NCBI GenBank assembly: GCA_964536535.1
Contig: CAZHXU010000001.1
Span: forward strand, 1 to 59,553
Reading direction: 5' to 3'
DNA: 59,553 nucleotides
DNA from: an uncultured Fusobacteriaceae bacterium
GTDB taxonomy: Bacteria > Fusobacteriota > Fusobacteriia > Fusobacteriales > Fusobacteriaceae
Below, piece after piece: positions 4,895 to 50,141 of this stretch. The notes beneath the pieces were generated by a model. It saw only the letters and a program-made list of their open reading frames with translations, did not search any database and was not told the DNA's origin. Within the stretch, counting starts at the first letter, position 1. Each line of letters begins with the position of its first letter. The position numbers and the translations under genes are program-made.

Positions 4895-6112
4895 TTAGAT
4901 TAACATCCTAAACATATCCATTACTTCTACTTTTTCATCCAAATATATTTTGGCAATCGTATTTGGATTTACTGCGTCAACTTCCTCACCAGTTTTAGTA
5001 ATTATAAATTTGTCTATTTTTATCTTTAATGGTTCTCCTTTAGGTCTGATTACTTCTATTTCATCCACACCTGCAACCATTCTATTTCTTACTTCTATTA
5101 CAACTCCGCCATCTTCTTCTACTTCCAGAACTTTTGCTACTAATTTATGTGTTTGGCTATATGAATTTCTGTCATTATAGTTTTGAGCTGTTTCATCAGG
5201 ACGTCCGTGGTAGAAGCCATCTGTATAAAGTCTATGACTTATAGTTTGCAGTTCCTCTAACCATTTTGGATTATAAACATACTCTTCGTCACTGTAGTAC
5301 AAGTCTACAGCTTCTTTATATATCTTAGCTGTATTTGCTACATAATAGATACCCTTCATACGTCCTTCTATCTTCAGACTGTCTATTCCAAGATCAAGTA
5401 GTTTATCTATCATATCTATAGTACACAAATCTTTTGAGTTAAATATATGAGTTCCATGTTCATCTTCATAGATTGGATAATACTCATCAGGTCTTTTTTC
5501 TTCTACCAATTTATACTTCCATCTACATGCTTGTGCACAATCTCCTCTGTTTGCATCTCTACCAGTCATGTGGTTGCTAAGCAAACATCTACCAGAGATA
5601 GCGATACACATAGCTCCGTGTACAAATGCTTCTAATTCTATATCAGGTACTTTAGCTCTAATCTCAGCTAATTCTTCAAGACTTATTTCCCTAGCAAGTA
5701 CAACCCTTTTTGCTCCAAGGTCTTTCCACATCTTTACTGATCTCCAGTTTGTGTTACTTGCTTGTGTACTGATACTTATTGGGATATCCGAGTTTTCTTT
5801 TACTACTTGGAATACTCCAAGGTCAGCAACGATTACTCCATCTACTCCGATTTCTTCCAGTGTTTTTACATATGCTGGTAACAAATCTAACTCTTTGTTA
5901 TGAGCAATTATATTTAAAGTTACATATATCTTTTTTCCTCTTGCATGTGCATAAGCTACTGCTTCTCTTAATTCATCATCAGAAAAGTTAGTACTTCCTG
6001 CTCTCAGATTAAACATCTTTCCACCAAGGAATACAGCGTCTGCTCCATAGTGAAATGCCATCTTCATTTTTTCCATATTTCCTGCTGGTGCCAAAACTTC
6101 AGCTCTTTTCAT
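4895..6112 (-). CDS. Peptidase U32 family protein (collagenase-like / YdcP-type)
   Basis: 405 aa. N-terminus MKRAEVLAPAGN..AFHYGADAVFLGG, plus GVDGVIVADLG and SLKIEGRMK, are typical of the U32 family. Confidence 0.85.
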   Translation of the reverse strand: MKRAEVLAPAGNMEKMKMAFHYGADAVFLGGKMFNLRAGSTNFSDDELREAVAYAHARGKKIYVTLNIIAHNKELDLLPAYVKTLEEIGVDGVIVADLGVFQVVKENSDIPISISTQASNTNWRSVKMWKDLGAKRVVLAREISLEELAEIRAKVPDIELEAFVHGAMCIAISGRCLLSNHMTGRDANRGDCAQACRWKYKLVEEKRPDEYYPIYEDEHGTHIFNSKDLCTIDMIDKLLDLGIDSLKIEGRMKGIYYVANTAKIYKEAVDLYYSDEEYVYNPKWLEELQTISHRLYTDGFYHGRPDETAQNYNDRNSYSQTHKLVAKVLEVEEDGGVVIEVRNRMVAGVDEIEVIRPKGEPLKIKIDKFIITKTGEEVDAVNPNTIAKIYLDEKVEVMDMFRMLI

Positions 6113-6146
6113 ATCATACTCACCTCAATTTTTATTTCCAACATAT

Positions 6147-6175
6147 ATTATATGTATCTTTAAATAAAAAGTCAA
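6147..6175 (-). promoter_or_regulatory. Sigma70-type promoter for the U32 gene
   Basis: Minus strand TTGACT (6175-6170), 17-nt spacer, TATAAT (6152-6147), about 35 nt upstream of ATG 6112. Confidence 0.6.
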
Positions 6176-6477
6176 TATTTACTTTTTTTGTATACTTTTA
6201 ATTTTAAACCTATTTCTATTTACTATAGATACGCCTCTCTCTCTTCTTTTTTCTTGAAACTCTTTTAATTTTTTTTCTTCCTATAAGTTCCTATATAATA
6301 TCTAACTTGTTTTTTCTTAAATTTTACATGATTTAAGTCAATTTTTCATCATTTATTTCATTTATATTCAGAGGTTTATCTAATTCTCCATCAAACTCTT
6401 TTATTTCAAAGATTCTTTCAAACTCAAAATCCCCTAGAAATTCTTTTTCTTTCACATATTCATTTATGCCAATCGGT

Positions 6478-6750
6478 GCTAATCTGCCCTACCCTTTTCA
6501 TCCACTTTTTACTTTCTATTTCTCACTTCCTACTTTCCTTATTCGTTGACGTTTTTTCTTCTCTATCTCTTTGGCTTATTTCCATAAGCCCCTACCTTCT
6601 ACTTTCTATTTCCCTACTTTCTACTTTTCACTTCTATTTTCTTCCTTTGTACGGGCTAATCGTTGATTCGCCCTCTATCCTACTTCCTACTTTCCCTATT
6701 TTCATCTTCCTTTTCGTTGATTCGCCCTACATCCTACTTTATCTTATCCA
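6478..6750. repeat. Pyrimidine-rich (plus strand) degenerate tandem repeat tract
   Basis: CGTTGATTCGCCCT is exact at 6661-6674 and 6715-6728 (54-nt period). Related GCTAATCTGCCCTAC at 6478 and TTCGTTGACG at 6543. CTACTTTC is exact at 6530, 6599, 6614 and 6687, with near copies at 6510, 6621 and 6734. G is rare on the plus strand. The last unit overlaps the stop of the radical SAM gene. Confidence 0.75.
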
Positions 6751-8014
6751 ATCTATCATAAAAATCTGTCTTAGGATATTTTTCCAAATCTTTACAATAT
6801 TCTTTTGTCAAATTATAAGGGAGTGGCAACGTATCTAAGTTGTTTTCTTTATATAATTTATAGATATCTTTTGCTTTTTCTTCACAAATCCAACATGATA
6901 TGCACTTTTCAAATGTTTTTCTCATTCTATTATAGATGATTTCAAAATCTTCATCATGTATATTTCCAAAAGAGATATTCAAAAACTCACATGGTTGCAC
7001 ATCACCTTTTGCATTTAGATAAAACCTATCCGTTCCTCCTGCTGTACAACCATAGTGGTTTTTATCCTCTTCTATAGCTTGTGCTGATATGCTTGGATAA
7101 TCTATGTATTTTTTATCCAAGTTATACATATTTACCTTTTTCTTTAGTATATCCAAATCTTCATATGAATATTTATAGTCATTTTTACCAAGCCATGCTC
7201 CCGAAGGTTTAGGCATTATTAGTTGAATATATTCTATTCCTAACTCTTTTGCTTTTTCCATAATAGCTTCAAACTTCCCATTTTTATAATCTTCTTTCAT
7301 CAAACAAGCATTTGCTGTAGCCATTATTTCTACTTTTTTACAAAGTTTTATTCCATTGGTAAGTTTTTCAAAAGCATCTTGACGTCCCATAAAATCATTT
7401 AATACTTCTTCTCTATAATCATGAAGTGAAAACATTATAGCTTTCAGATTATACTTTTTTAATTCTGCCAATCGCTCTTTTGTAATTCCATCTCCAGTAG
7501 AGTTTACCCATATTTCCCCTTTGTTATCTATTGTCTGACACAGGGCTTTTAATCTGTCATACTTTATAAATGGATCTCCACCTTCTATATTAAAAAAAGC
7601 TATTCCTTTATCTACCATAGTTTTTATAGCTTCTACCAATTTGTCTATGTCAACATCCCTACCTATATCTAGCCTTTGATAACAATGTTTACATTTAAAC
7701 TTACATGCTGAAGTTATAGAAACTAGAGTTGTAACACATGGTAACTTTTCATGGAAAACTTTAAATTTATCTGCTGCTCTAAAAAAAGCTTTAGATGGAT
7801 ACTCTGGTATATAAAGACCAATTTTGGCTTTATTTCCGTCTTTAAGAAATTTATTGTTCTGAACACTACCCAAAAAAACTAACATTCTCTTTAAAAACTT
7901 AAAAAACTTCCCTTCAAACTTTCTCCCAAAATAATCTGGCAAATAATGAAAGAACACACCTATTATTATCTTAAAATTTATGATTTTTTTCCCAAAAGCA
8001 CTTACTTCTTTCAT
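6734..8014 (-). CDS. Radical SAM enzyme with C-terminal SPASM/twitch-like Cys motifs
   Basis: CKFKCKHCY (CxxxCxxC) after an ~95-aa basic/hydrophobic N-terminal extension. C-terminal GCTAGGTDRFYLNAKGDVQPCEF and CISCWIC. RBS GGAGGGAAT before the ATG. Confidence 0.8.
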   Translation of the reverse strand: MKEVSAFGKKIINFKIIIGVFFHYLPDYFGRKFEGKFFKFLKRMLVFLGSVQNNKFLKDGNKAKIGLYIPEYPSKAFFRAADKFKVFHEKLPCVTTLVSITSACKFKCKHCYQRLDIGRDVDIDKLVEAIKTMVDKGIAFFNIEGGDPFIKYDRLKALCQTIDNKGEIWVNSTGDGITKERLAELKKYNLKAIMFSLHDYREEVLNDFMGRQDAFEKLTNGIKLCKKVEIMATANACLMKEDYKNGKFEAIMEKAKELGIEYIQLIMPKPSGAWLGKNDYKYSYEDLDILKKKVNMYNLDKKYIDYPSISAQAIEEDKNHYGCTAGGTDRFYLNAKGDVQPCEFLNISFGNIHDEDFEIIYNRMRKTFEKCISCWICEEKAKDIYKLYKENNLDTLPLPYNLTKEYCKDLEKYPKTDFYDRLDKIK

Positions 8015-8022
8015 ATTCCCTC

Positions 8023-9051
8023 CTATATTAACCCTTGTTCTTTATACCAGTTCACTGTTTTTTCTATTCCTTCTTCCAAAGACGTATATTTGATAGGCCC
8101 TATTTTCTCTTCTACCTTTAGCCCCCTATATTCAATGTTGTCATAAAACATATTTATCCTAGCCCTTGTTAATAAAGGTGGATTTTTTATTTTGAATATA
8201 GTGTAAAATGCTTCTATTAAAAAAGCTATTGGATATATTAATCCCTTTTTTATATATTTAGGTTTATTCAAACTACTCTTTTGACAAAAAGTAGTATATA
8301 TCTCATCCATATACTTTATGTCTGGATTTGTAGCCAAATAAGATTCTACTCCTCTATTTTCTGCTTCAAATAATTTCAGGTATATATCTGCCAAATCTCT
8401 TACGTATATAACTGAAAATTTATTCTTTTTACTTCCAGGCATAATTTTCATTCCATCTTTGATACTTTTTATATATTGATAAAAACCTCCATTAACTTCA
8501 CCTTCACCATAGACCCAAACTGGTTCTATTATGACTATATTCATCTTATTTTTAATAGCATAATCGTTTATCAACTCTTTTGCCATACGTTTAGTATCAC
8601 GATAATAATTCATCTTTGATGGAAAAATTTTATCTAAAGTATATTTATAATGTGAATCTAATTTATATCTTTCATCTTTTATAATATGATTATTTTCTTC
8701 TCCATAAACAGAATTTGTCCCTGTTATTAATATTTTTTTTATTTCATTTTTTTTACAGATTTCTAATATGTTTTTTGTTCCATTTACATTTATTTCATAA
8801 AAATCTTTGTAATTACCCCAATCTTTTACTAAAGAAGCATTATGTATCAATCCATCTACACCATCCAAAGCTTTTTTCAAACTTTTTGTATCTCTAATGT
8901 CACCATAAAAGTATTCTATATCAAATTTTTTTAAAAGAGATAAATCACTATTTTCCCTTACCAAAACTCTTATTTCATATCCCTTTTCCAAAAATATCCT
9001 TACTAAATGATGACCTATAAATCCATTTGCTCCTGTTATTAATATTTTCAT
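8023..9051 (-). CDS. NAD(P)-dependent epimerase/dehydratase-family SDR (3-keto reductase-like)
   Basis: MKILITGANGFIGHHLV Rossmann motif; 342 aa. The ATG shares one base with the KAS stop (TAATG). Confidence 0.8.
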   Translation of the reverse strand: MKILITGANGFIGHHLVRIFLEKGYEIRVLVRENSDLSLLKKFDIEYFYGDIRDTKSLKKALDGVDGLIHNASLVKDWGNYKDFYEINVNGTKNILEICKKNEIKKILITGTNSVYGEENNHIIKDERYKLDSHYKYTLDKIFPSKMNYYRDTKRMAKELINDYAIKNKMNIVIIEPVWVYGEGEVNGGFYQYIKSIKDGMKIMPGSKKNKFSVIYVRDLADIYLKLFEAENRGVESYLATNPDIKYMDEIYTTFCQKSSLNKPKYIKKGLIYPIAFLIEAFYTIFKIKNPPLLTRARINMFYDNIEYRGLKVEEKIGPIKYTSLEEGIEKTVNWYKEQGLI

Positions 9052-10277
9052 TAGCTATACTTCCAAAATAACAAAGCACCATTATGCCCACCAAAACCAT
9101 AAGACATACTTAAAGCACTATTCACTTCTACCTTAATATCTTCCAATGGCAAGTTAATCCCTTCTATAGGATTTTTTATATGGTTTTTATGTATACGACT
9201 ATTTTTAATAGCATCTACACATATGATTGCTTCTAGTGCACCACTTGCTCCTATGTTGTGACCCAATATCCCCTTAGAAGAATTAACATAGGGTTTCTGA
9301 CCTAATACTTCTTTTATTACTTCTGCTTCTACTTGGTCATTAAGTATAGTTCCAGTCCCGTGACTATTTATATAATCTATCTCTTTCCCTCTAGTTATTT
9401 CTTTCATAAGTTCTTTGATTTTTTTCCCACTTTCTTCTATCTTTACTATATTAAATGCATCACTATTTTTTTTAAAATCTACTATCTCAGCATAAATAGT
9501 TGCACCTCTTTCTAAAGCGTGATTTAACTCTTCTAATACTAATATAGCTCCTGCACCATCTGAAAACAAAAAACCACTTCTACTTTGTGAAAATGGTTCT
9601 GCTATACCCCTATCTGATTTTGTTAATACACCAAGAGTATCAAATCCCCTCATAGAAGTTCCACTTCCGTCTTTCAGGTATTCTACACCTCCACTAATTA
9701 CTACTTTTGCTTTTCCCTCTTTTATCTCTTCATAACTTTTTCCAATAGCATATGTACCCGATGCACACGAAGCATTTAAGGTATAGTTTTCACCTTCCAA
9801 ACCAAATAATATAGATACCCATGCAGATGCTGCATTGGGCATAATGAGTGGTATAGATAATCTATTAAATCTGCCTATATTATTCACATGAGATTCATAC
9901 CCGTCAAAACATTCTCCTACACTAGATAATCCAAGACCTAAAATCACTTTTGCATCTATATCTACTCCAAATCCTTTGTCTTTTGTTATTATATCAAAGC
10001 CTGCATCTTCAAGAGCTTTGTAACTACCATATACAGCATACTTTGAGTTTCCGCCTAAAAGTTTATTATATACAGGCGTTAATCCTAAGTCTTCCATATT
10101 TATATTAGGTGCTGGTACTCTGTAGGTAGAAGTGAATTTATAGTTTTTTTCATATTCGGCAGGTATCTTTTCAGCTTTATTCTCCCCTTCAAATAAGCCC
10201 TCAAAAAATTCCTCTTTTCCTTTTCCTACTGCACTAATAGGACATAATCCTGTTACTACAACTCTATTCATAATCAT
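9051..10277 (-). CDS. Beta-ketoacyl-ACP synthase (KAS I/II, FabF-like)
   Basis: NRVVVTGLCPISAVG N-terminus. Cys-His-His triad contexts ASCASGTYAIG, NSHGTGT and GHNIGASG. Confidence 0.85.
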   Translation of the reverse strand: MIMNRVVVTGLCPISAVGKGKEEFFEGLFEGENKAEKIPAEYEKNYKFTSTYRVPAPNINMEDLGLTPVYNKLLGGNSKYAVYGSYKALEDAGFDIITKDKGFGVDIDAKVILGLGLSSVGECFDGYESHVNNIGRFNRLSIPLIMPNAASAWVSILFGLEGENYTLNASCASGTYAIGKSYEEIKEGKAKVVISGGVEYLKDGSGTSMRGFDTLGVLTKSDRGIAEPFSQSRSGFLFSDGAGAILVLEELNHALERGATIYAEIVDFKKNSDAFNIVKIEESGKKIKELMKEITRGKEIDYINSHGTGTILNDQVEAEVIKEVLGQKPYVNSSKGILGHNIGASGALEAIICVDAIKNSRIHKNHIKNPIEGINLPLEDIKVEVNSALSMSYGFGGHNGALLFWKYS

Positions 10278-10281
10278 ACTC

Positions 10282-11262
10282 CTATAATCTGTTAATTTTT
10301 TTTATATAATCTTTTATATTTTCAAAATCACGTGCTCTAAAATCTATCTTAGACAAGTCTATCTTTTTCCCCTCATATTCAAGCTCTTTATCTTCCTTTA
10401 ATATGTATCCTAACTTATGAAAATTCAGATTTTTTTCTTCTACTTCCTTCAAAAAATCCTCTTCATCTTCTTTTTTTAGAGTAAATAATAGTTCATACTC
10501 TCCTGCTTCACCTAAAAAAAGTATTAATGGATTTATTCCCATTAATTTAGCCAGTCTTCTACCTTTTTTATTTAATAAAGGATTTTTCACACTGTACCCT
10601 ACCTTACTTTCTCTGCTAAGTATTTCCAAAGAGTTAAATACACCATCACTAGTATCTATAGCACTTGTTCCGTATTTTCGCAGCAGTTTTGCTTTTTCTT
10701 TTGATACTTCAAACTTATCTTTTATTAACTTTGAATAATCACATTTGGGTAAAAAAGAAAAAAAAGCTTCGAGATTACCCAAACCTATAGCTCCTGTAAT
10801 ATATATTATTTCTCCTTCTTTTGCTCCACTACGAAATATAGGTTTTTCTACTTGCCCCAAAGCAACTCCTGTATAACTCCAACTTTCAGCTTTTCCAAAA
10901 TCTCCTCCCAAAAGGGCTACTTCATTGTTTCTTAATACATCAGATATACCCTTACAAAATTCCATCAAATAATCATCTTTCCAGTTTTGACCTAAAACCA
11001 TACTATGTAAATAATGTTTTGGTATACCTCCCGTAACATATATATCTGTAAGTGTTCCTGTAGCTATATTCCATCCTAACCTATAAGGATTCATTTCCAA
11101 AAACCTATCTTCTTTAGAAAATTCATCTATGTTTATACATAACTTTTGTCCAAAAATATTAAATACTTCTGAATCGGCTTCATTTATTTTGTTTATCTGA
11201 TCTGGGTTTTTATCAAATAAACTCCTAATTAATTTTATACTATTCCCTTCAAAATTGTTCAT
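10282..11262 (-). CDS. AIR-synthase-related (PurM/ThiL superfamily) ATP-dependent enzyme
   Basis: NIDEFSKEDRF..RLGWNIATGTLTDIYVTGGIPKHYLHSMVLG matches the ThiL/PurM N-domain pattern (D.f.e..hF..iG.k....SD.a..Ga.P). The C-terminal half has the GEYELLFT-type AIRS_C pattern. Confidence 0.65.
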   Translation of the reverse strand: MNNFEGNSIKLIRSLFDKNPDQINKINEADSEVFNIFGQKLCINIDEFSKEDRFLEMNPYRLGWNIATGTLTDIYVTGGIPKHYLHSMVLGQNWKDDYLMEFCKGISDVLRNNEVALLGGDFGKAESWSYTGVALGQVEKPIFRSGAKEGEIIYITGAIGLGNLEAFFSFLPKCDYSKLIKDKFEVSKEKAKLLRKYGTSAIDTSDGVFNSLEILSRESKVGYSVKNPLLNKKGRRLAKLMGINPLILFLGEAGEYELLFTLKKEDEEDFLKEVEEKNLNFHKLGYILKEDKELEYEGKKIDLSKIDFRARDFENIKDYIKKINRL

Positions 11263-12186
11263 CTATACCTCTTTTACTACAAGTTCTAGTTTATCTCTTG
11301 CTACGACTATCTTACAAGGTAGTTCTCCTTGGGGATCCCCGTCAAACTCTAACTTAATTTTATCTTTTGATTTCACTTCTACTCCCTCTGCAAATATTAG
11401 CTCTATGCCCCTATCCTTTTTAATATAGTCTCCTTTATATATTTTATAGATAGAATTTATCAAAGTTTTTATCCCTCTTTTTTTAACTATCATTATATAA
11501 AACTTCCCTTTTTCTCTATTTACTGCATCTTTTACTTTTATTCCAGAAGCAATTAATGGTGTTATGCCTACAGAGATATTATAAAAATCCTTTATTATTT
11601 TCTTTTTATCCCCATAGTTTATTTCAACTGTATCTCCCCTATAACTCATTAGTATAGATAATAATGATACAAATGTTCCTAAAAAATCTCCTATATAAGA
11701 CCTTATTCCACTATTTGCCCTTTTGGCTAACTCAGCTCCTAATCCTATATTAGCGCAACATGCAAAATATGATACTACTTTTTTATCTATATATTCTACT
11801 TGACCAAGTTCTATTTCTACTATTTTCCCCTTTGTTACTACTTCCAAAGCTTCTTCCAAAACTAATGGTATATTGTATGATTTACAAAAATCAGGGCTTG
11901 TACCTGTATAAATTATAGCTAATTTAGAATCAGATAATTTTTCTCCTTTATCATTATAAAATCCATTTATTACTTTATTTATAGTTCCATCTCCACCTAC
12001 TGCAACTATAACATCTATATTTTTTTTATTTCCATCCAATGATTTTTCATAAGCATCTTCTAAAGATTTAGTTTCATACAATTCAAAATCTAGAGATTTT
12101 TCTTCAAAATATTCTTTAATTAATGATTTTTTATAGGCATTTTTTCCACCTTTAGATTTTGGATTAAATATTATTAGATACTTCAT
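11263..12186 (-). CDS. Diacylglycerol-kinase-catalytic-domain lipid kinase (YegS/BmrU/sphingosine-kinase-like)
   Basis: VIVAVGGDGTINKVINGF (GGDGT motif); 307 aa. Directly abuts the next gene (11263/11262). Confidence 0.8.
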   Translation of the reverse strand: MKYLIIFNPKSKGGKNAYKKSLIKEYFEEKSLDFELYETKSLEDAYEKSLDGNKKNIDVIVAVGGDGTINKVINGFYNDKGEKLSDSKLAIIYTGTSPDFCKSYNIPLVLEEALEVVTKGKIVEIELGQVEYIDKKVVSYFACCANIGLGAELAKRANSGIRSYIGDFLGTFVSLLSILMSYRGDTVEINYGDKKKIIKDFYNISVGITPLIASGIKVKDAVNREKGKFYIMIVKKRGIKTLINSIYKIYKGDYIKKDRGIELIFAEGVEVKSKDKIKLEFDGDPQGELPCKIVVARDKLELVVKEV

Positions 12187-13346
12187 TATAAATCCTCTAT
12201 TATTTTAATAACATTAGTTATAGTGTCGCTTGTCAAGTTTGCTCCTGCTATTATTCTTATTCTTCCTTCTTTTGGTGGTACTGATGGTTCAACAAAAGGA
12301 GTTACTAATATGCCCTTTTCAAAGAATTTTTTTGCAATATTTATAGTATTTATCTTATCTCCACCTATAATAGAATTAATTGGTGATTTACTTTCTACTA
12401 TTTCAAAACCTTTTTTAACCAAAGCTTCTCCAATTAATTTTTTATACTCCCAAACTTTATTATTTATTTCTTCATAATCTTTTTTTAATATATCTAATAC
12501 TTTTTCTACTCCGCTTATTACCATAGGAGGTAGTGCTGTAGAATATATCAAATGTGGAAAGTAGTATCTAAGATATTCTATAGTTTCTTTATCTGCACCT
12601 ATTACTCCCCCAAGATTTGCTATCGCTTTCCCTAAAGATGCCGTATATACTACTCTTTTACTATTATTTATACCATTTAATTTCAGTGCACCTCTACCGC
12701 CACTTCCGATTACTCCTATTCCATGTGAATCATCAACTACTAATGTACAATTATACTTTTCACACAAATCTAACAGTTGATCTACTGGAGCCAACTGACC
12801 TTCTGTTGAAAAAACAGATTCAGTAACTATCCATCTATGATTATAATTTTGGGCTTTTTCCAATATTCCCTCTAGATGGACTAAATTATTATGTAAAAAA
12901 GCTCTGTTTCTACAACTTGCACTTTGTATCCCTTGTAATAAAGAAGAATGAATATAGTGGTCGAAAATAATTATATCTTCCTTTTCTGCTAACATATCAA
13001 AAATACCATTATTAGCTTGGTAACAAGATGGTAATAATATCGTTTCTTCTACTCCTACAAACTCTGCCAGTCTTCTTTCTACCCTTTTCCCTACACTACT
13101 ATAACCAACAGCTATAGGTGTTCCGCATAATGAAACCCCATACTTATTTATACTTTCTATTACTGCTTCTTTTACCCTTTGATCATCTGCTAAGCCCAGA
13201 TAATTATTTGATGCCAAGTTTATATATTCTTTCCCTTCAATAATTATCTTATCTGACAAAGCAGAATCTAAGCAACTATAATAGGGATCAAAAGATGTTT
13301 CTTCTTTTATTTTTTGTGTTTCATATATTGCTTCTACTCTCTTCAT
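12186..13346 (-). CDS. PLP-dependent alpha-oxoamine synthase (BioF/KBL/serine-palmitoyltransferase family)
   Basis: NNYLGLADD, DDSHGIGVIGSGGRG and the PLP-lysine context TASLGKAI. One-base overlaps at both ends (13346 and 12186). Confidence 0.85.
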   Translation of the reverse strand: MKRVEAIYETQKIKEETSFDPYYSCLDSALSDKIIIEGKEYINLASNNYLGLADDQRVKEAVIESINKYGVSLCGTPIAVGYSSVGKRVERRLAEFVGVEETILLPSCYQANNGIFDMLAEKEDIIIFDHYIHSSLLQGIQSASCRNRAFLHNNLVHLEGILEKAQNYNHRWIVTESVFSTEGQLAPVDQLLDLCEKYNCTLVVDDSHGIGVIGSGGRGALKLNGINNSKRVVYTASLGKAIANLGGVIGADKETIEYLRYYFPHLIYSTALPPMVISGVEKVLDILKKDYEEINNKVWEYKKLIGEALVKKGFEIVESKSPINSIIGGDKINTINIAKKFFEKGILVTPFVEPSVPPKEGRIRIIAGANLTSDTITNVIKIIEDL

Positions 13347-13573
13347 TAATTTACCTTTTCTTTTATCATATTAACTAATTGATTTATAGTCATTTCTGTG
13401 TCTAATTTATCTCTATCTAATATAATTCCAAATTCATCTTCTATTCCATCAGTTATTATCATTATTCCAAGTGAATCTACACCTATATTTTCTATAGTAT
13501 CTTCCATTTCAAACTCTACTTTTTTCTCCATATTTTTTTTCACTACTTCTAATATTCTATCTTCTATTCTCAT
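13346..13573 (-). CDS. Acyl carrier protein
   Basis: 75 aa with a GVDSLGIM phosphopantetheine-attachment (DSL) motif. RBS AAGGGAG before the ATG. Overlaps the end of the OYE gene by 17 nt. Confidence 0.85.
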   Translation of the reverse strand: MRIEDRILEVVKKNMEKKVEFEMEDTIENIGVDSLGIMIITDGIEDEFGIILDRDKLDTEMTINQLVNMIKEKVN

Positions 13574-14777
13574 TTTTTACTCCCTTATTTAATATACATT
13601 TTGTTTTTTTACCCGAATCTGTCATAATTGCACAGATATTACAGTTAATACACTTTGATTTATATTCTTTATTCTCTTTCAATTTTGATAAAAAATCACT
13701 TTCACATAAAAATGGTCTGGATAAACTAACAAAATCTATTCTTTTTTTACAAAAAGCATATTCTATTTCTTTCATAGTTCTAAATCCACCTACTGTAATA
13801 ATGGGTATATTTGTATATTTTTTAGCTTCTACTGCATACTCCAAATTATACATAGGTTTATAATCTATTATTTTTATCTTCATTAATGGATAAATAAATA
13901 TTCTCCAAGTTTTTTTCAAAAATCTATTTTCTATTTTATATATTGGATTGTGCTCTAATATTTCACTAATTGGTATACTTTTTCCTCTAAATATATTCAA
14001 AGCATAATCCATAGTTCCATAACTTATTTCAATTGCAAACACTTTTTTTTCATCCAAAAATTTTATTAATTCTACCAGTTCCTCTTTATCAAACTTTGGT
14101 CTCAAATCGTCACTGCCACTTATTTTTACTAAAATAGGATAAGTATCCCCACAGACTTTTTTTATTTCATCTATAATATCACCTAAAAACTTCGTTGCTA
14201 TTTTACCTTTACCTATTCCATATTCATCTTTTCTTTTATTAATAGCTTTAGTTAAAAATTGATGTATCAAATAACCATGAGCACAATGAAGCTGTATACC
14301 TGTAAAACCTATCTTTTTTGCATGTAATGCTGCTTCTCCAAATTTTTCTATAATTTCTTCTATTTCTTTTTTCTCAAGTTTTTTAGCCCTTTCACCAAAA
14401 TAAAAAGATTTTGTACTTGAGCTAGATACTATATCTTTTACCCTATATGATTTTGTTTGCCTACCTACATGAGCAAGCTGAACAAAATAATTAACTCCTT
14501 TAACTTTTGCATAATCACACAGGTTTTTATATCTTTTGACTTTGGAATAATTATCAAAACCAGCCTGTTTTGGCTGCATAGCTTTTCCATTATCCATTAT
14601 ATAAACAAAACCTGTAATTACCCCTCCTATTTTTTGGTCAAACAAATCTTTGTACAACATTTCATACTCTTTTGTTATGTATCCTTGGTCATCTGCCATA
14701 GCTTCAAAAGTAGCTGACCTAAATAATCCATTACTAAACTTTATATCTCCTATTTTTTTTTCATGAAATATACTCAT
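13557..14777 (-). CDS. Old-yellow-enzyme / NADH:flavin oxidoreductase TIM-barrel protein with Fe-S Cys motif (short FadH/enoate-reductase-like)
   Basis: VQLAHVGRQT and GIQLHCAHGYLIHQFL..NKRKDEYG are OYE signatures. C-terminal CINCNICA-x11-C. I place the start at ATG 14777 (MSIFHEKK), 1 nt after the UbiA stop, not at 14822 as in the ORF track. Confidence 0.8.
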   Translation of the reverse strand: MSIFHEKKIGDIKFSNGLFRSATFEAMADDQGYITKEYEMLYKDLFDQKIGGVITGFVYIMDNGKAMQPKQAGFDNYSKVKRYKNLCDYAKVKGVNYFVQLAHVGRQTKSYRVKDIVSSSSTKSFYFGERAKKLEKKEIEEIIEKFGEAALHAKKIGFTGIQLHCAHGYLIHQFLTKAINKRKDEYGIGKGKIATKFLGDIIDEIKKVCGDTYPILVKISGSDDLRPKFDKEELVELIKFLDEKKVFAIEISYGTMDYALNIFRGKSIPISEILEHNPIYKIENRFLKKTWRIFIYPLMKIKIIDYKPMYNLEYAVEAKKYTNIPIITVGGFRTMKEIEYAFCKKRIDFVSLSRPFLCESDFLSKLKENKEYKSKCINCNICAIMTDSGKKTKCILNKGVKNENRR

Positions 14778-14778
14778 G

Positions 14779-15747
14779 TTAGGCCCTACTATTACTGTAC
14801 AAACTAAATAAGAATTCAACAAAAATATATGATGATATAAATAAAACTAAAGCTAATTTTTCATTAAACAAACCTAATAAAGCTGCTTGTGAACAAGTAC
14901 AAGCTTTAAAATTTGTTTCTAAGGAAAAATATGTTTTTTCCCCTATTGGATTCAAATAAAATAAGATTCCTGTCCACAAAAATAAAAATGTAGATACTAT
15001 TCCTAAAAAGATAAATACAAATCCTACATTTCCTTTTATTACACCCAATTTATATAAAATAAGAAATAATGTTGTAGGAACTACAGAAACTATTAATGAT
15101 AAATATTTTGATTTCTTTAGTCCATATTTTACTATTAATGTTTTTTTTCCTGCTTTTTTATCTCCTTTATAATCTTTAAAATAAGTATAAAAAGTCATCA
15201 TTCCATTTATTGTTATAATTAATATTGATCCACCCCACAAATTCTTTGTTAAAGGCATTAATGGTAGATTTCCTGCTGCTAACATACCAAAAAATGAAGT
15301 TGTTAATATCATTACTCCAAAAACTATATTACCCAATATTCCTTTGCCTTTGGCATATTCATAAACTACATTAAGCCCTACTCCTGCTATCAAAGGGATT
15401 ACAGCCAAAGGACTTAGATAAAAATATGTATAAACAAGAATTAAAAAAAGAATTATTCCACTTGTTAACAATGCTTTTTTAGGATTTAACTGACCTGTTA
15501 CCATAGGTCTTTCAGGAGCGTTTATTCTATCTTCCTCCAATCCCAAATAATCATTAACAATCTGATTTATACCCCAACTTAAAAATAAAAGTGTAAGTAT
15601 AACAAGTTTTCTTTTTAATCCTAATTCTTCTAATTTCAATTCATTCACTATAGACTCATAATATGCTACTCCCAACCACCCTGGTATTCCTGTTACAAAT
15701 GCATAATATAATCTCATTGATTTAATATAATTAATTATAAATTTCAT
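14779..15747 (-). CDS. UbiA-family membrane prenyltransferase
   Basis: 322 aa, multi-TM. Motifs NDYLGLEEDRINAPERPMVTG and KDYKGDKKAGKKTL correspond to the two Asp-rich UbiA motifs. Confidence 0.85.
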   Translation of the reverse strand: MKFIINYIKSMRLYYAFVTGIPGWLGVAYYESIVNELKLEELGLKRKLVILTLLFLSWGINQIVNDYLGLEEDRINAPERPMVTGQLNPKKALLTSGIILFLILVYTYFYLSPLAVIPLIAGVGLNVVYEYAKGKGILGNIVFGVMILTTSFFGMLAAGNLPLMPLTKNLWGGSILIITINGMMTFYTYFKDYKGDKKAGKKTLIVKYGLKKSKYLSLIVSVVPTTLFLILYKLGVIKGNVGFVFIFLGIVSTFLFLWTGILFYLNPIGEKTYFSLETNFKACTCSQAALLGLFNEKLALVLFISSYIFVEFLFSLYSNSRA

Positions 15748-15779
15748 CTTTCTCCTTATGTGTATTTTTTAATAAGTTT

Positions 15780-15808
15780 ATTATATCTTATTAAAAATTT
15801 TAAATCAA
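15780..15808 (-). promoter_or_regulatory. Sigma70-type promoter of the nine-gene cluster
   Basis: Minus strand TTGATT (15808-15803), 17-nt spacer, TATAAT (15785-15780). RBS AAGGAGAAAG before ATG 15747. Confidence 0.5.
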
Positions 15809-15935
15809 GATTTATAAATTAGCCTTCAACTTTCTTCTAAAAGTAATGAAAATATTAGACTTATACACTTTTATCAAAAACAAATAATAACATCAAATTT
15901 CATCTTATAAATTTTTTATATCTCAAATATAACTA

Positions 15936-15962
15936 AATAAAAAAGAGACCCAAAAAGGTCTC
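15936..15962 (-). terminator. Intrinsic terminator after dnaB
   Basis: Minus strand GAGACC-TTTTTG-GGTCTC followed by TTTTTTATTT, 9 nt after the dnaB stop. Confidence 0.75.
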
Positions 15963-15970
15963 AATATCTA

Positions 15971-48209: not shown

Positions 48210-49574
48210 CTAATTTTTCATTGCTTGTATTGGTGGACTTACTTGTCCTCCTCTATCAATTAGTTTTTCACAATTTAATGAATTAATTGGCATAATATCT
48301 GCTTCTCCTAATAAACCACCAAAAACTACTCTTTCTCCTACACCTTTTCCAGGTACTGGAATCACACGTACTGCAGTAGTTTTATTATTTACCATTCCTA
48401 TAGCCATCTCATCAGCAATAAGACCTGATATTACATAATCAGGTGTATCTCCTGGAATAGCTATCATATCTAAACCTACTGAACACACACTTGTCATAGC
48501 TTCAAGTTTTTCTAAAGTTAAATATCCTTTACTAGCTGCAGCTATCATTCCTTGGTCTTCACTTACTGGAATAAATGCTCCTGTAAGACCACCTACTCTA
48601 CTTGCTCCCATAGCTCCACCTTTTTTTACTGCGTCATTTAGTATTGCAAGAGCAAAAGTTGTTCCATAAGCACCAACTGATTCTATTCCAAATTCTTCAA
48701 GAATATTTCCTACACTATCACCAACTGCTGGAGTTGGTGCAAGTGATAAATCAACTATACCAAAGTTTATTCCTAATTCTTTTGCAACTTCTTTTCCAAC
48801 TAATTCACCCATTCTAGTAATTTTAAAGCTAATTTTTTTTATTGTTTCAGTAACTTCTTCTATACTTGCTTTTTTATCTACTTTACTAAGAGCTGCTCTT
48901 ACTACTCCCGGTCCGCTTATTCCCAAATTAAGAACTACTTCTTGTTCGTTAACGCCGTGGAATGCTCCAGCCATAAAAGGGTTGTCAGATACTGCATTTG
49001 TAAATACAACAAATTTTGCTGCTCCTAAGCCATCTTGATCTTTTGTTTCTTCTGCAAGTTTTTTTACTGTTTGTCCCATTAATTTTATTGCATCCAAATT
49101 AATTCCAGCTTTTGTAGATCCTACATTAACAGAACTACATACTCTATCTGTTTCTTTAAGTGCTTTTGGTATACTTTCAATAAGATATTTATCTCCTTTT
49201 GTATATCCTTTTTCAACTAAAGCACTAAACCCACCAATAAAATCTATTCCTATTTTTTTTGCAGCTTTATCAAGTGCTTTTGCAAATATTGTATAGTCTG
49301 TTGCATCTGTAGCATTTCCAATAATAGCAATTGGAGTTACACTTACTCTTTTATTAACAATAGGTACTCCAAATTTTTTTGATACTCTATTTGCAACTTC
49401 TACCAATTCACTTCCGTATTTAACTATTTTATTATATATATTATCTGCTGTTTTATTTGCGTCTTTTTCTATACAGTCTAAAAGACTAATCCCCATAGTT
49501 ACAGTTCTTACATCTAAGTTTTGTGTATCAACCATTTTTATCGTTTCAAGTATCTCTGTTGGTAATAAATGCAT
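48210..49574 (-). CDS. UPF0210 (DUF711) family protein, function unknown
   Basis: 454 aa. [28 protein letters not shown]-terminus is typical of UPF0210. Follows an ACT protein, as is usual for this family. Confidence 0.8.
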
Positions 49575-49922: not shown

Positions 49923-50141
49923 AAAAATAAAAAAGAAGAGCCGTGCCCTCCTCTAGAGTATTGTAGAAAAAGACAGTTTTCCTGTCTTCTTCCCCTGTCC
50001 TTTTACCTGAGAGTGTTACTCCTTCGGTGCCATTTTGGTCTCTCCAGAGGCTCGTCCAGTAATGGTCCCATCCCTTAAAAGGATACCTGAAAGATTTACT
50101 TCTTCGGTGGTCTTTAGACACTCTCCCCTTACCTTCGTCCG
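49923..50141 (-). promoter_or_regulatory. Tandem glycine riboswitch (two aptamers) with terminator-type expression platform
   Basis: Minus-strand RNA. Aptamer 1: GGGGAGAGUGUCUAAAGACCACCGAAGAAGUAA..UUCAGGU..GGGAC. Aptamer 2: CUCUGGAGAGACCAAAAUGGCACCGAAGGAGUAACACUCUCAGGUAAAAGGACAGGGG. Both match the glycine riboswitch cores GGAGAG / CACCGAAGGAGxAA / CUCAGGxAAAAGGAC. Followed by AAGACAG-GAAAA-CUGUCUU-UUUCU and AGAGGAG-GGCACGG-CUCUUCU-UUUUUAUUUUU. Confidence 0.85.

Follow-up and report, generated by a model that had tools for sequence, protein, structure and literature searches.

The window analyzed here, a 59,553-nucleotide (nt) stretch of contig CAZHXU010000001.1 from an uncultured Fusobacteriaceae bacterium, carries a run of nine minus-strand open reading frames (ORFs; 6734-15747) between the dnaB stop (15971) and a gene of the U32 peptidase family (start 6112). 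In transcription order, these encode a UbiA-family prenyltransferase (UbiA), a short flavoprotein of the old yellow enzyme type (OYE), an acyl carrier protein (ACP), an alpha-oxoamine synthase (AOS), a diacylglycerol kinase (DAGK)-type lipid kinase, a ThiL-like protein of the PurM superfamily (AIRS), a 3-ketoacyl-ACP synthase (KAS), a short-chain dehydrogenase/reductase (SDR), and a radical S-adenosylmethionine enzyme (rSAM). The question raised by this locus is what a set of such composition could make. As a tentative answer, possible rather than probable, we propose that it is a self-contained mobile operon for an undescribed membrane lipid of anaerobes, a prenylated amino-alcohol phospholipid. 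The gene set itself, its conservation as a unit, its division into core and accessory genes, its insertion into the host genome, and the family and active-site assignments were established directly.

All nine ORFs that an earlier note, made from the sequence of the window alone, had placed at this span are present, and the Pfam families agree with those named there, all nine assignments exceeding the Pfam gathering scores by a wide margin. Recomputed in transcription order, the junctions are +1, -17, -1, -1, 0, +4, -1, and +8 nt; the set of values is identical to that given earlier, but the order is not, the 17-nt overlap lying between OYE and ACP and not between UbiA and OYE. The OYE start at ATG 14777 agrees with an independent gene call, the longest ORF opening at TTG 14822. 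That the genes overlap or abut points to an operon. The dnaB terminator and the TTGATT-17-TATAAT site reported earlier were both located; since promoter-like hexamer pairs occur in the AT-rich window at chance frequency (58 seen, 57.4 expected from shuffled sequence), the promoter is called by its position alone.

To see how far the arrangement extends, 185,579 species genomes were scanned with an alignment of the ThiL-like protein. This yielded 120 confirmed relatives, of which the best 80 loci were examined as 21-kb stretches (43 of them with full 10-kb flanks), gene content being assigned by tblastn with the nine window proteins. UbiA, AOS, the DAGK-type kinase, the ThiL-like protein, SDR, and rSAM occur together in 39 of the 43 full-flank loci, and all eight large genes in 33 of the 43; an ACP ORF is found at the expected position in 46 related loci. 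All nine genes, in unchanged order, are present in a Clostridia metagenome-assembled genome (MAG; locus L002), in locus L085, and on a Cloacimonadota contig (L090), and Acetivibrio alkalicellulosi (L003) has all nine with UbiA displaced. Locus L090 is the JGI 3300009692 contig, whose rSAM protein is named Cloacimonadota by NCBI. A Spirochaete MAG (L004) has a seven-gene version without ACP and KAS; KAS is missing in L004/L072, L035, L057, L071, L083, and L084, and OYE in two otherwise complete loci (L039 and L046). The core of the operon is UbiA, AOS, the DAGK-type kinase, the ThiL-like protein, SDR, and rSAM, the latter being core in the main version of the cluster; ACP, KAS, and OYE are accessory. 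The earlier note, which had treated the nine genes as one cluster, is borne out by their co-conservation as a block across phyla; it had overlooked the dispensability of ACP, KAS, and OYE, the core status and intact active site of the ThiL-like protein, and the horizontal insertion described below.

AOS and rSAM each have hundreds of metagenome homologs at ~50% identity, all under generic names. The block is kept as a unit in anaerobes of at least 13 phyla. Among Bacillota, it is carried by many Desulfosporosinus, Acetivibrio, Herbivorax, Petroclostridium, and Alkaliphilus peptidifermentans; other carriers belong to Omnitrophota, Bacteroidota, Acidobacteriota, Latescibacterota, Sumerlaeota, Auribacterota, Desulfobacterota, Oligoflexia, Spirochaetota, Cloacimonadota, and Delongbacteria. 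Bacteroidota (e.g., L074, L078, L081, and L071) have a cyclic permutation of the order, AIRS-(KAS)-SDR-rSAM-UbiA-OYE-AOS-DAGK, which suggests two modules, UbiA to DAGK and AIRS to rSAM, that can be joined either way. The four full-flank exceptions to the six-gene core are Draconibacterium-type loci, with a ThiL-like protein 36% identical to that of the window, a distant AOS (~30%), a distant DAGK, a distant UbiA (~25%), an SDR of the classical type, and a B12-type rSAM. In L064 (9998-16372; also L055, L069, L075, L077, and L082; Draconibacterium/Bacteroidales) AOS has 430 and UbiA 368 amino acids (aa), and the rSAM is of class B with a B12-binding domain; a flavodoxin/ferredoxin-type ORF lies upstream of this divergent cluster, and OYE is absent from it. 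The Draconibacterium version is the same functional set rebuilt from non-orthologous parts. Such re-assembly is strong evidence for a joint function of AOS, the reductase, the lipid kinase, the ThiL-like enzyme, and UbiA.

The arrangement far exceeds what chance would give, since dozens of unrelated genomes have these genes as one block. A chance juxtaposition of housekeeping paralogs (bioF, thiL, fabF, dgk, and ubiA) in one AT-rich genome, with no common pathway, would agree with the public automatic annotations, which read 'KAPA synthase-like', 'glycine C-acetyltransferase', and 'radical SAM protein'. However, this explanation, to which we give practically no chance, is already refuted by the co-conservation: gene order is conserved in at least 13 phyla, the junctions overlap or abut, all members fall under the equivalog cut-offs (see below), and the unit behaves as an insertion that is either there in full or missing. 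In the conserved flanks (within 6 kb, ~80 loci) no acyltransferase, prenyl-diphosphate synthase, head-group transferase, or exporter was found, and the block looks self-contained because no further biosynthetic gene is conserved there. Gene fusions among cluster members were not observed in the 80 loci.

The block reached this genome by horizontal transfer. The DnaB protein of the window is 84% identical to that of a Fusobacteriaceae MAG, 74% to that of Hypnocyclicus thermotrophus, and 72% to that of Cetobacterium, which assigns the window to Fusobacteriaceae. Relatives with 89% and 84% identical DnaB retain the upstream synteny (TPR, ExbB, ExbD, TonB, sigma-54 activator, DnaX, GGDEF, hypothetical protein, L9, and DnaB) and have no cluster after dnaB. 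In Hypnocyclicus, a U32 peptidase gene follows dnaB after 26 nt, its product being 73% identical to that of the window gene beyond the cluster (empty-site comparison loci L087, L088, and L089). Since the relatives lack the block and Hypnocyclicus has dnaB directly before the orthologous U32 gene, positions 6113-15970 (~9.86 kb, from dnaB to the U32 gene) are a horizontally acquired insertion. Its ends show no flanking direct or inverted repeats of at least 11 nt and no integrase or transposase, and the GC content of the block, overall and at third codon positions (GC3), is indistinguishable from that of the host.

None of the nine proteins reaches any equivalog cut-off of NCBIfam (June 2026), a release that has no models specific to the block. 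Assignments to biotin, thiamine, CAI-1, 5-aminolevulinate, menaquinone, heme o, chlorophyll, and canonical serine palmitoyltransferase (Spt) were rejected, all being under these cut-offs. The gene set was not found described in the full-text literature examined, a scope that left out most subscription journals, so that a closed-access description is possible. To this extent, the gene set is not already assigned to a characterized pathway, an outcome that would have refuted the earlier note. The Fe-S motif of OYE, the Cys-His-His triad of KAS, and the auxiliary-cluster Cys motifs of rSAM that it had named are real, conservation having been scored over 55-82 orthologs per protein (UbiA 59, OYE 55, and the ThiL-like protein 82) and the motifs being kept across them.

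UbiA scores 88.7 bits with the Pfam UbiA model (cut-off 34.2), and the best NCBIfam models are the archaeal prenyltransferase PRK12884 (82 bits, cut-off 269) and those of digeranylgeranylglyceryl phosphate synthase (DGGGPS), PRK12882 (70, cut-off 296) and PRK12883 (58, cut-off 353). The sole sequence match in PDB is the Methanocaldococcus jannaschii DGGGPS (6m31, E 1.4e-12), with which both Asp-rich motifs align. The first of these motifs reads NDxLGxxED, the middle Asp being replaced by Gly, and the second KDxxGDxxxxKxT; both are kept in the 59 orthologs. Alone among the nine proteins, UbiA has strongly hydrophobic segments, several in number. By its motifs and profile it is a member of the UbiA prenyltransferase superfamily, predicted to be polytopic, with two Asp-rich diphosphate/Mg-binding motifs of which the first is a variant. 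Its nearest characterized relative by sequence is DGGGPS, though it is not a DGGGPS equivalog.

AOS (Pfam Aminotran_1_2, 152.8 bits) has DDSHG and SLGK motifs, the latter with the lysine for pyridoxal 5'-phosphate (PLP), that are conserved among its orthologs. It scores 304 bits with bioF (TIGR00858; cut-off 426), 282 with 2-amino-3-ketobutyrate CoA ligase (KBL; 460), 204 with CqsA (PRK07179; 428), 189 with 5-aminolevulinate synthase (ALAS; 339), and 267, 205, and 157 with the Spt models of the CFB, beta, and alpha groups (640, 500, and 670, respectively). In PDB, structures of KBL, BioF, and Spt match it about equally. By these scores, it is placed outside the BioF, KBL, Spt, CqsA, and ALAS equivalogs, about equidistant from BioF, KBL, and Spt; a reading of its substrate from sequence was abandoned, since the three kinds of structure fit about equally well. 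Biotin synthesis was rejected on the bioF score and since BioA, BioD, and BioB do not accompany the gene, the rSAM not being BioB-like.

The placement of AOS bears on two alternatives. The first is the canonical ceramide or ceramide-phosphate pathway, with an N-acyltransferase encoded elsewhere and the extra genes serving for tailoring. The set of ACP, AOS, SDR, and a DAGK-type kinase does mirror AcpR, Spt, CerR, and CpgB of Caulobacter (PMC11324152), and the Spt, bCerS, and CerR genes are often not co-localized in Bacteroidota and Cloacimonadota (PMC11334938). However, AOS is far under all three Spt cut-offs; bCerS-like genes are absent from ~50 loci and their surroundings, and no AasR-type acyl-ACP synthetase was found; the invariant core includes UbiA and the ThiL-like protein, which are absent from described sphingolipid pathways; and the complete unit moves into genomes whose relatives lack it, which argues against dependence on a distant partner. 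We therefore regard this alternative as quite unlikely. The sphingoid-base logic without a ceramide synthase, put forward in the earlier note, is reasonable, and its statement that no ceramide-synthase-like acyltransferase is present holds for the block and the conserved flanks; the AOS, however, is not demonstrably an Spt.

The second alternative is a diffusible alpha-hydroxyketone signal of the CAI-1/LAI-1 type, or a different small metabolite for secretion, whether prenylated or not. The synthases of these signals, CqsA and LqsA, are members of the AOS family and, like it, act on an acyl thioester. The only recurrent flank gene could also be brought in here: an XRE-type helix-turn-helix (HTH) protein, which may be a dedicated regulator, is encoded directly upstream of UbiA in 23 Bacillota loci (Desulfosporosinus and Clostridia). 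Examples are L024 4494-5078 and L002 7081-7524. Yet this gene is absent outside Bacillota, the window included, and the score with the CqsA model is less than half of its cut-off. No CqsS-like sensor kinase or exporter is conserved nearby, whereas eight further biosynthetic enzymes are encoded in the block, and a product residing in the membrane is suggested by the lipid kinase, the membrane-bound UbiA, and the large number of enzymes. Nothing in the locus speaks specifically for a diffusible signal, which appears very unlikely.

Several features point to a lipid. The kinase matches DgkB (2qv7, E 2e-19), has a conserved GGDGT motif, and belongs to the DgkB/YegS lipid-kinase family. SDR (Pfam Epimerase, 127 bits; 3Beta_HSD, 114 bits), with conserved TGxxGxxG and YxxxK motifs, is the probable keto-reductase of the set; its nearest NCBIfam models, all under cut-off, are the lipid-acting HpnA, OleD, and SdmB. 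Together with the hydrophobic segments of UbiA, the family of the kinase and the nearest models of SDR would give the pathway a lipid or membrane character. Of the products put forward in the earlier note, a prenylated or ether-linked amino-lipid and an alpha-hydroxyketone-type signal with an isoprenoid tail, the lipid is favored because UbiA is DGGGPS-like and the DAGK-type enzyme belongs to a lipid-kinase family.

The ThiL-like protein is the marker by which the loci were found. Its nearest model is thiL (TIGR01379, 131 bits, cut-off 184), and it matches the Aquifex aeolicus ThiL structures 1vqv and 3c9r at E ~1e-17. Residues D30, D46, D73, R144, and D203-x-S205-D206 align with D27, D43, D71, R142, and D207-x-S209-D210 of ThiL, which we take to be the ThiL catalytic residues. 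All are invariant in a four-sequence alignment (A1), and conservation in the 82-sequence alignment of the family is at least 95% for D30, D46, D73, R144, S205, and D206, and 80-95% for D203. The active-site pattern is, by alignment, that of ThiL rather than of PurM or HypE. The family is small and separate from ThiL (91 representatives at E<=1e-30 among 1.84 billion), and its gene context is an operon of the present lipid type, not a group of thiamine genes, in all 80 loci. With these residues kept, the enzyme probably acts in the manner of ThiL, with which it shares the fold and the Asp/Arg/Ser constellation, without being ThiL. An intact active site of this pattern implies formation of a diphosphate, as far as alignment can tell. 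We know of no PurM-superfamily enzyme that acts on a lipid.

This active site is also the basis of a different scheme, in which the alcohol made by AOS and SDR would be converted by the DAGK-type kinase to a monophosphate and by the ThiL-like enzyme to a diphosphate, which UbiA would use as a non-isoprenoid electrophile for alkyl transfer to an acceptor or for cyclization. Parallels exist in plants, where phytol kinase and phytyl-phosphate kinase supply the UbiA-type VTE2, and in mycobacteria, where 5-phosphoribosyl diphosphate (PRPP) feeds the UbiA-type decaprenyl-phosphoribose (DPPR) synthase. Every enzyme of the UbiA superfamily binds a diphosphate, and the block has two kinases and no prenyl-diphosphate synthase; intact ThiL catalytic residues imply phosphoryl transfer to a phosphate-like nucleophile; the two kinase genes adjoin each other directly (0-nt junction) wherever the order is the main one; the ThiL-like protein is the best-conserved marker, kept where AOS, UbiA, and SDR are swapped for distant paralogs; the conserved atypical NDxLGxxED motif could reflect an atypical diphosphate substrate; and the scheme gives a job to every core enzyme. 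On the other hand, known UbiA chemistry needs a stabilized (allylic or oxocarbenium) cation, which a saturated amino-alcohol diphosphate does not supply, and the possible installers of an allylic system, rSAM and OYE, vary in type or presence. Moreover, both Asp-rich regions align closely with DGGGPS, a normal user of prenyl diphosphates, and the two kinase genes stand at opposite ends of the operon in Bacteroidota. On balance, we consider a scheme with such a donor rather doubtful.

The remaining four enzymes could elongate or tailor the product. KAS scores 266 bits with the fabF model (cut-off 494) and has a conserved Cys-His-His triad, and the DSL motif of ACP is conserved among orthologs. 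OYE (Pfam Oxidored_FMN, 138 bits) matches YqjM-type enzymes and FadH in PDB; its HxAHGYL motif (His-pair site) and C-terminal CxxCxxC-x11-C are kept in 55 orthologs, and it is devoid of the C-terminal NAD(P)H/FAD domains of FadH and BaiCD. With its Oxidored_FMN barrel, His pair, and four-Cys motif, it fits, by sequence criteria, the Fe-S OYE/FadH-type flavoenzymes. In rSAM, C104, C108, and C111 (CxxxCxxC) as well as C159, C225, C237, C323, C342, and C377 are invariant in 30 homologs. Its auxiliary motif consists of C323...G337-x4-C342 and C377, C380 being also present in the window protein; four auxiliary-cluster cysteines suggest one auxiliary cluster of the twitch-like kind. The AlphaFold2 (AF2) model of rSAM has a predicted local distance difference test (pLDDT) score of 91.7, and its top Foldseek matches in PDB are at a template-modeling (TM) score of ~0.5, with SkfB, SuiB, viperin, anSME, EpeE, BlsE, DesII, MoaA, and PqqE among the 50 best. 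The model shows no B12 domain, and no tetraether synthase occurs among the 50 best matches; the N-terminal ~90 residues, which contain two helices, are unmatched by the structure search. From the Cys motifs and the fold match of the model, rSAM is assigned to the SPASM/twitch subclass. A tetraether or ring synthase and a B12 methylase were considered for it and rejected, as the model matches generic twitch/SPASM enzymes only.

One could also think of a prenylated N-heterocycle or of a quinone-like molecule of the membrane, redox-active or bioactive: KAS and ACP would supply a beta-ketoacyl-ACP, AOS would add an amino acid, the PurM-like protein would aid cyclization, and UbiA would prenylate the ring. 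Parallels are aurachin, with KS/ACP and the UbiA-type AuaA, and the PigJ/PigH step of prodigiosin. PurM proper closes a ring in an ATP-dependent reaction, aromatic rings are the acceptors of most UbiA enzymes, KAS is weakly similar to the PigJ and AmcF models and ACP to AmcB, and an Fe-S flavoenzyme and rSAM would suit redox tailoring in anaerobes. However, several loci that are otherwise complete do without KAS and ACP, the active site of the ThiL-like protein does not have the PurM/HypE pattern, UbiA is nearest to the O-prenylating DGGGPS and not to aromatic UbiA, MenA, or MqnP, and the lipid kinase would have no role. Such a product is unlikely.

The prenylated amino-alcohol phospholipid proposed above could be assembled as follows, each chemical step being inferred from family membership. 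First, AOS would condense an acyl thioester with an amino acid to an alpha-amino ketone; the acyl group would be carried by the dedicated ACP and optionally extended or tuned by KAS, with a housekeeping ACP serving where the ACP and KAS genes are missing. Second, the extended SDR would reduce the ketone to a vicinal amino-alcohol, i.e., a sphingoid-type base, and the DAGK-type lipid kinase would phosphorylate a hydroxyl. Third, the DGGGPS-like UbiA would attach to this single-chain lipid phosphate an isoprenoid drawn from the prenyl diphosphates of the cell, as in the archaeal conversion of geranylgeranylglyceryl phosphate (GGGP) to digeranylgeranylglyceryl phosphate (DGGGP), thereby standing in for a ceramide synthase as the enzyme that supplies the second chain. 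Fourth, the ThiL-like enzyme would turn a phosphomonoester of the pathway into a diphosphate, to be used as a pyrophosphate head group or an activated intermediate. Finally, the Fe-S OYE may reduce a C=C bond, and rSAM may carry out an O2-independent oxidation, desaturation, or C-C chemistry.

Several points weigh against this scheme. AOS is placed in the Spt clade by no model, and, with BioF and KBL at equal distance, its scores single out neither an amino acid nor a chain length. UbiA is far under the DGGGPS cut-offs, its first motif deviates from NDxxDxxxD, and neither the block nor its conserved flanks encode a polyprenyl-diphosphate synthase, a geranylgeranylglyceryl phosphate synthase (GGGPS), or a head-group transferase. 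The His pair of OYE would point to an enone or enoyl substrate rather than to an isolated prenyl double bond. Since the rSAM class differs between the two versions of the cluster, rSAM cannot be central to backbone formation. Lastly, the most faithfully conserved marker, the ThiL-like enzyme, is not strictly required by the scheme, a fact that better fits the use of a non-isoprenoid diphosphate by UbiA.

The operon stands outside the Spt/CerR/bCerS, archaeal lipid, thiamine, biotin, and CAI-1 pathways, being partly like the first two in its working, and it is related in logic to bacterial sphingolipid synthesis. In Caulobacter, a specialized ACP feeds Spt, after which a dehydrogenase and a DAGK-type ceramide kinase act (PMC11324152). 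The ceramide pathway of this bacterium (AcpR, AasR, Spt, CerR, bCerS, and CpgB; PMC11324152, PMC11334938) resembles the block in that one locus encodes a dedicated ACP, a reductase using NAD(P) (in the block, putatively SDR), a DAGK_cat kinase, and an alpha-oxoamine synthase for the committed step. In contrast, neither bCerS nor AasR is found in the block or its conserved flanks, the AOS is not an Spt equivalog, and the block adds UbiA, the ThiL-like kinase, and rSAM as core and OYE and KAS as accessory members. An adenylate-forming synthetase of any kind is absent from the block and the conserved flanks, the ACP itself being dispensable in some loci. In Cloacimonadota, none of 33 MAGs has bCerS or CerR near the Spt-like gene, and non-homologous replacement was suggested (Ding et al., PMC11334938); the Cloacimonadota contig described above carries the full block, and the Spt-like genes of this phylum may be tied to the present operon.

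The archaeal ether-lipid pathway (PMC9385802) is similar in that its DGGGPS, which is near to UbiA, adds the second chain to a single-chain lipid phosphate, and in that the transferase has a flavoenzyme reductase and a radical SAM enzyme at its side, the archaeal counterparts being geranylgeranyl reductase (GGR) and Tes/Grs. However, GGGPS, sn-glycerol 1-phosphate (G1P) dehydrogenase, and CarS are missing from the block and the conserved flanks, an Fe-S OYE takes the place of the GGR-type FAD enzyme, rSAM is not like Tes or GDGT-MAS, and the presumed backbone is an amino-alcohol made by AOS and not glycerol phosphate. The bacterial DGGGPS homologs of Cloacimonetes adjoin GGGPS (Villanueva et al., PMC7852524), a context different from that of the block. 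Two successive kinases (alcohol to phosphate to diphosphate) coupled to a transferase of the UbiA superfamily are also found in phytol salvage. In plants and cyanobacteria, this route uses the phytol kinase VTE5, the phytyl-phosphate kinase VTE6, and the homogentisate phytyltransferase VTE2, VTE5 and VTE6 being CTP-dependent integral membrane kinases of unrelated folds. The kinases of the block differ from these, one being a soluble DAGK_cat enzyme and the other having the PurM/ThiL fold, and the alcohol would come from AOS and SDR, not from chlorophyll breakdown.

Coordinates of the operon and of the adjoining features are collected in Table 1.

Table 1. Features of the inserted segment, in transcription order for the genes (positions in the window).
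Feature	Position	Strand	Details
UbiA-family integral membrane prenyltransferase	14779-15747	-	322 aa; Pfam UbiA
Short OYE-type FMN ene-reductase with C-terminal four-Cys Fe-S motif	13557-14777	-	406 aa; Pfam Oxidored_FMN
Dedicated ACP	13346-13573	-	75 aa, DSL motif; Pfam PP-binding
PLP-dependent alpha-oxoamine synthase (AOS)	12186-13346	-	386 aa; Pfam Aminotran_1_2
DAGK_cat/YegS_C soluble lipid kinase	11263-12186	-	307 aa; Pfam
ThiL-like PurM-superfamily ATP-utilizing enzyme (AIRS)	10282-11262	-	326 aa; nearest model thiL
FabF/FabB-type elongating KAS, Cys-His-His triad	9051-10277	-	408 aa; Pfam ketoacyl-synt and Ketoacyl-synt_C
Extended SDR, epimerase/3-beta-HSD family	8023-9051	-	342 aa; Pfam Epimerase and 3Beta_HSD
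Radical SAM enzyme (rSAM), twitch/SPASM-type auxiliary-cluster domain	6734-8014	-	426 aa; Pfam Radical_SAM, Fer4_12, SPASM
Intrinsic dnaB terminator, upstream edge of the inserted block	15945-15962	-	7-bp G+C-rich stem, then TTTTTTATTT
Promoter-like TTGATT-17-TATAAT	15808-15780	-	10/12 match
AAGGAG ribosome-binding site ahead of the first ATG (UbiA)	15757-15752	-	
Non-coding tail from the rSAM stop to the U32 peptidase gene	6113-6733	-	621 nt; purine-rich, repeats

The non-coding tail is probably part of the inserted segment. Its first 275 nt are 79% purine on the sense strand, with degenerate GTAGGA/AGTAGAAAGTAGG repeats, and it contains a 26-nt repeat at 6660-6685 and 6714-6739 and two copies of the 14-mer GGGCGAATCAACGA. 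No terminator was found after rSAM, and no Rfam match at E<=1 in the tail. The many GGA motifs of the tail may recall CsrA-sponge RNAs. The U32 peptidase family gene (4895-6112, minus strand) has its own TTGACT-17-TATAAT site at 6175-6147. The U32 peptidase family includes O2-independent hydroxylases. As a tenth member of the block, this gene was rejected, being unlinked to the block elsewhere and the ancestral neighbor of dnaB.

The window has ~28% G+C, with nearly every gene on the minus strand; its GC skew is very strong and uniform (-0.2 to -0.43 per 2 kb) except for a weaker part at ~54-58 kb. A glycine riboswitch aptamer (Rfam RF00504, 54 bits) was identified at 49985-50057 on the minus strand, ~410 nt upstream of the start (49574) of a DUF711 ORF on the same strand (48210-49574).

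Anoxic sediments, groundwater, digesters, and guts are the typical habitats of the carriers of the operon (Desulfosporosinus, Omnitrophota, Cloacimonadota, Prolixibacteraceae, Latescibacterota, Acidobacteriota, and Fusobacteriaceae), and many orphan lipid biomarkers of such environments have no source organism. If the product is a new lipid, its route is not captured by lipid surveys based on Spt/bCerS/CerR, GGGPS/DGGGPS, Tes, or Ger/PlsA. Culture collections hold several of the carriers, which include Desulfosporosinus hippei DSM 8344, D. lacus DSM 15449, Alkaliphilus peptidifermentans DSM 18978, Acetivibrio alkalicellulosi DSM 17461, and Mangrovibacterium lignilyticum BM_7; at 9 kb, with nine genes and one promoter, the operon is compact. 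With more doubt than for the phospholipid proposed above, one may also envisage a new hybrid class between sphingoid lipids and archaeol, in which a fatty-acid-derived amino-alcohol phosphate of the sphingoid type would receive an isoprenoid chain through an enzyme like the archaeal DGGGPS, crossing the 'lipid divide', with the first lipid-directed member of the PurM/ThiL group forming a lipid diphosphate; this could explain Spt-like genes without bCerS and CerR in Cloacimonadota and other bacteria of anoxic zones. If true, the operon would be a concrete candidate for the 'alternative non-homologous proteins' of Ding et al. (PMC11334938), and it would extend the substrate range of PurM/ThiL enzymes to a lipid and that of DGGGPS-like UbiA enzymes to a non-glycerol backbone.

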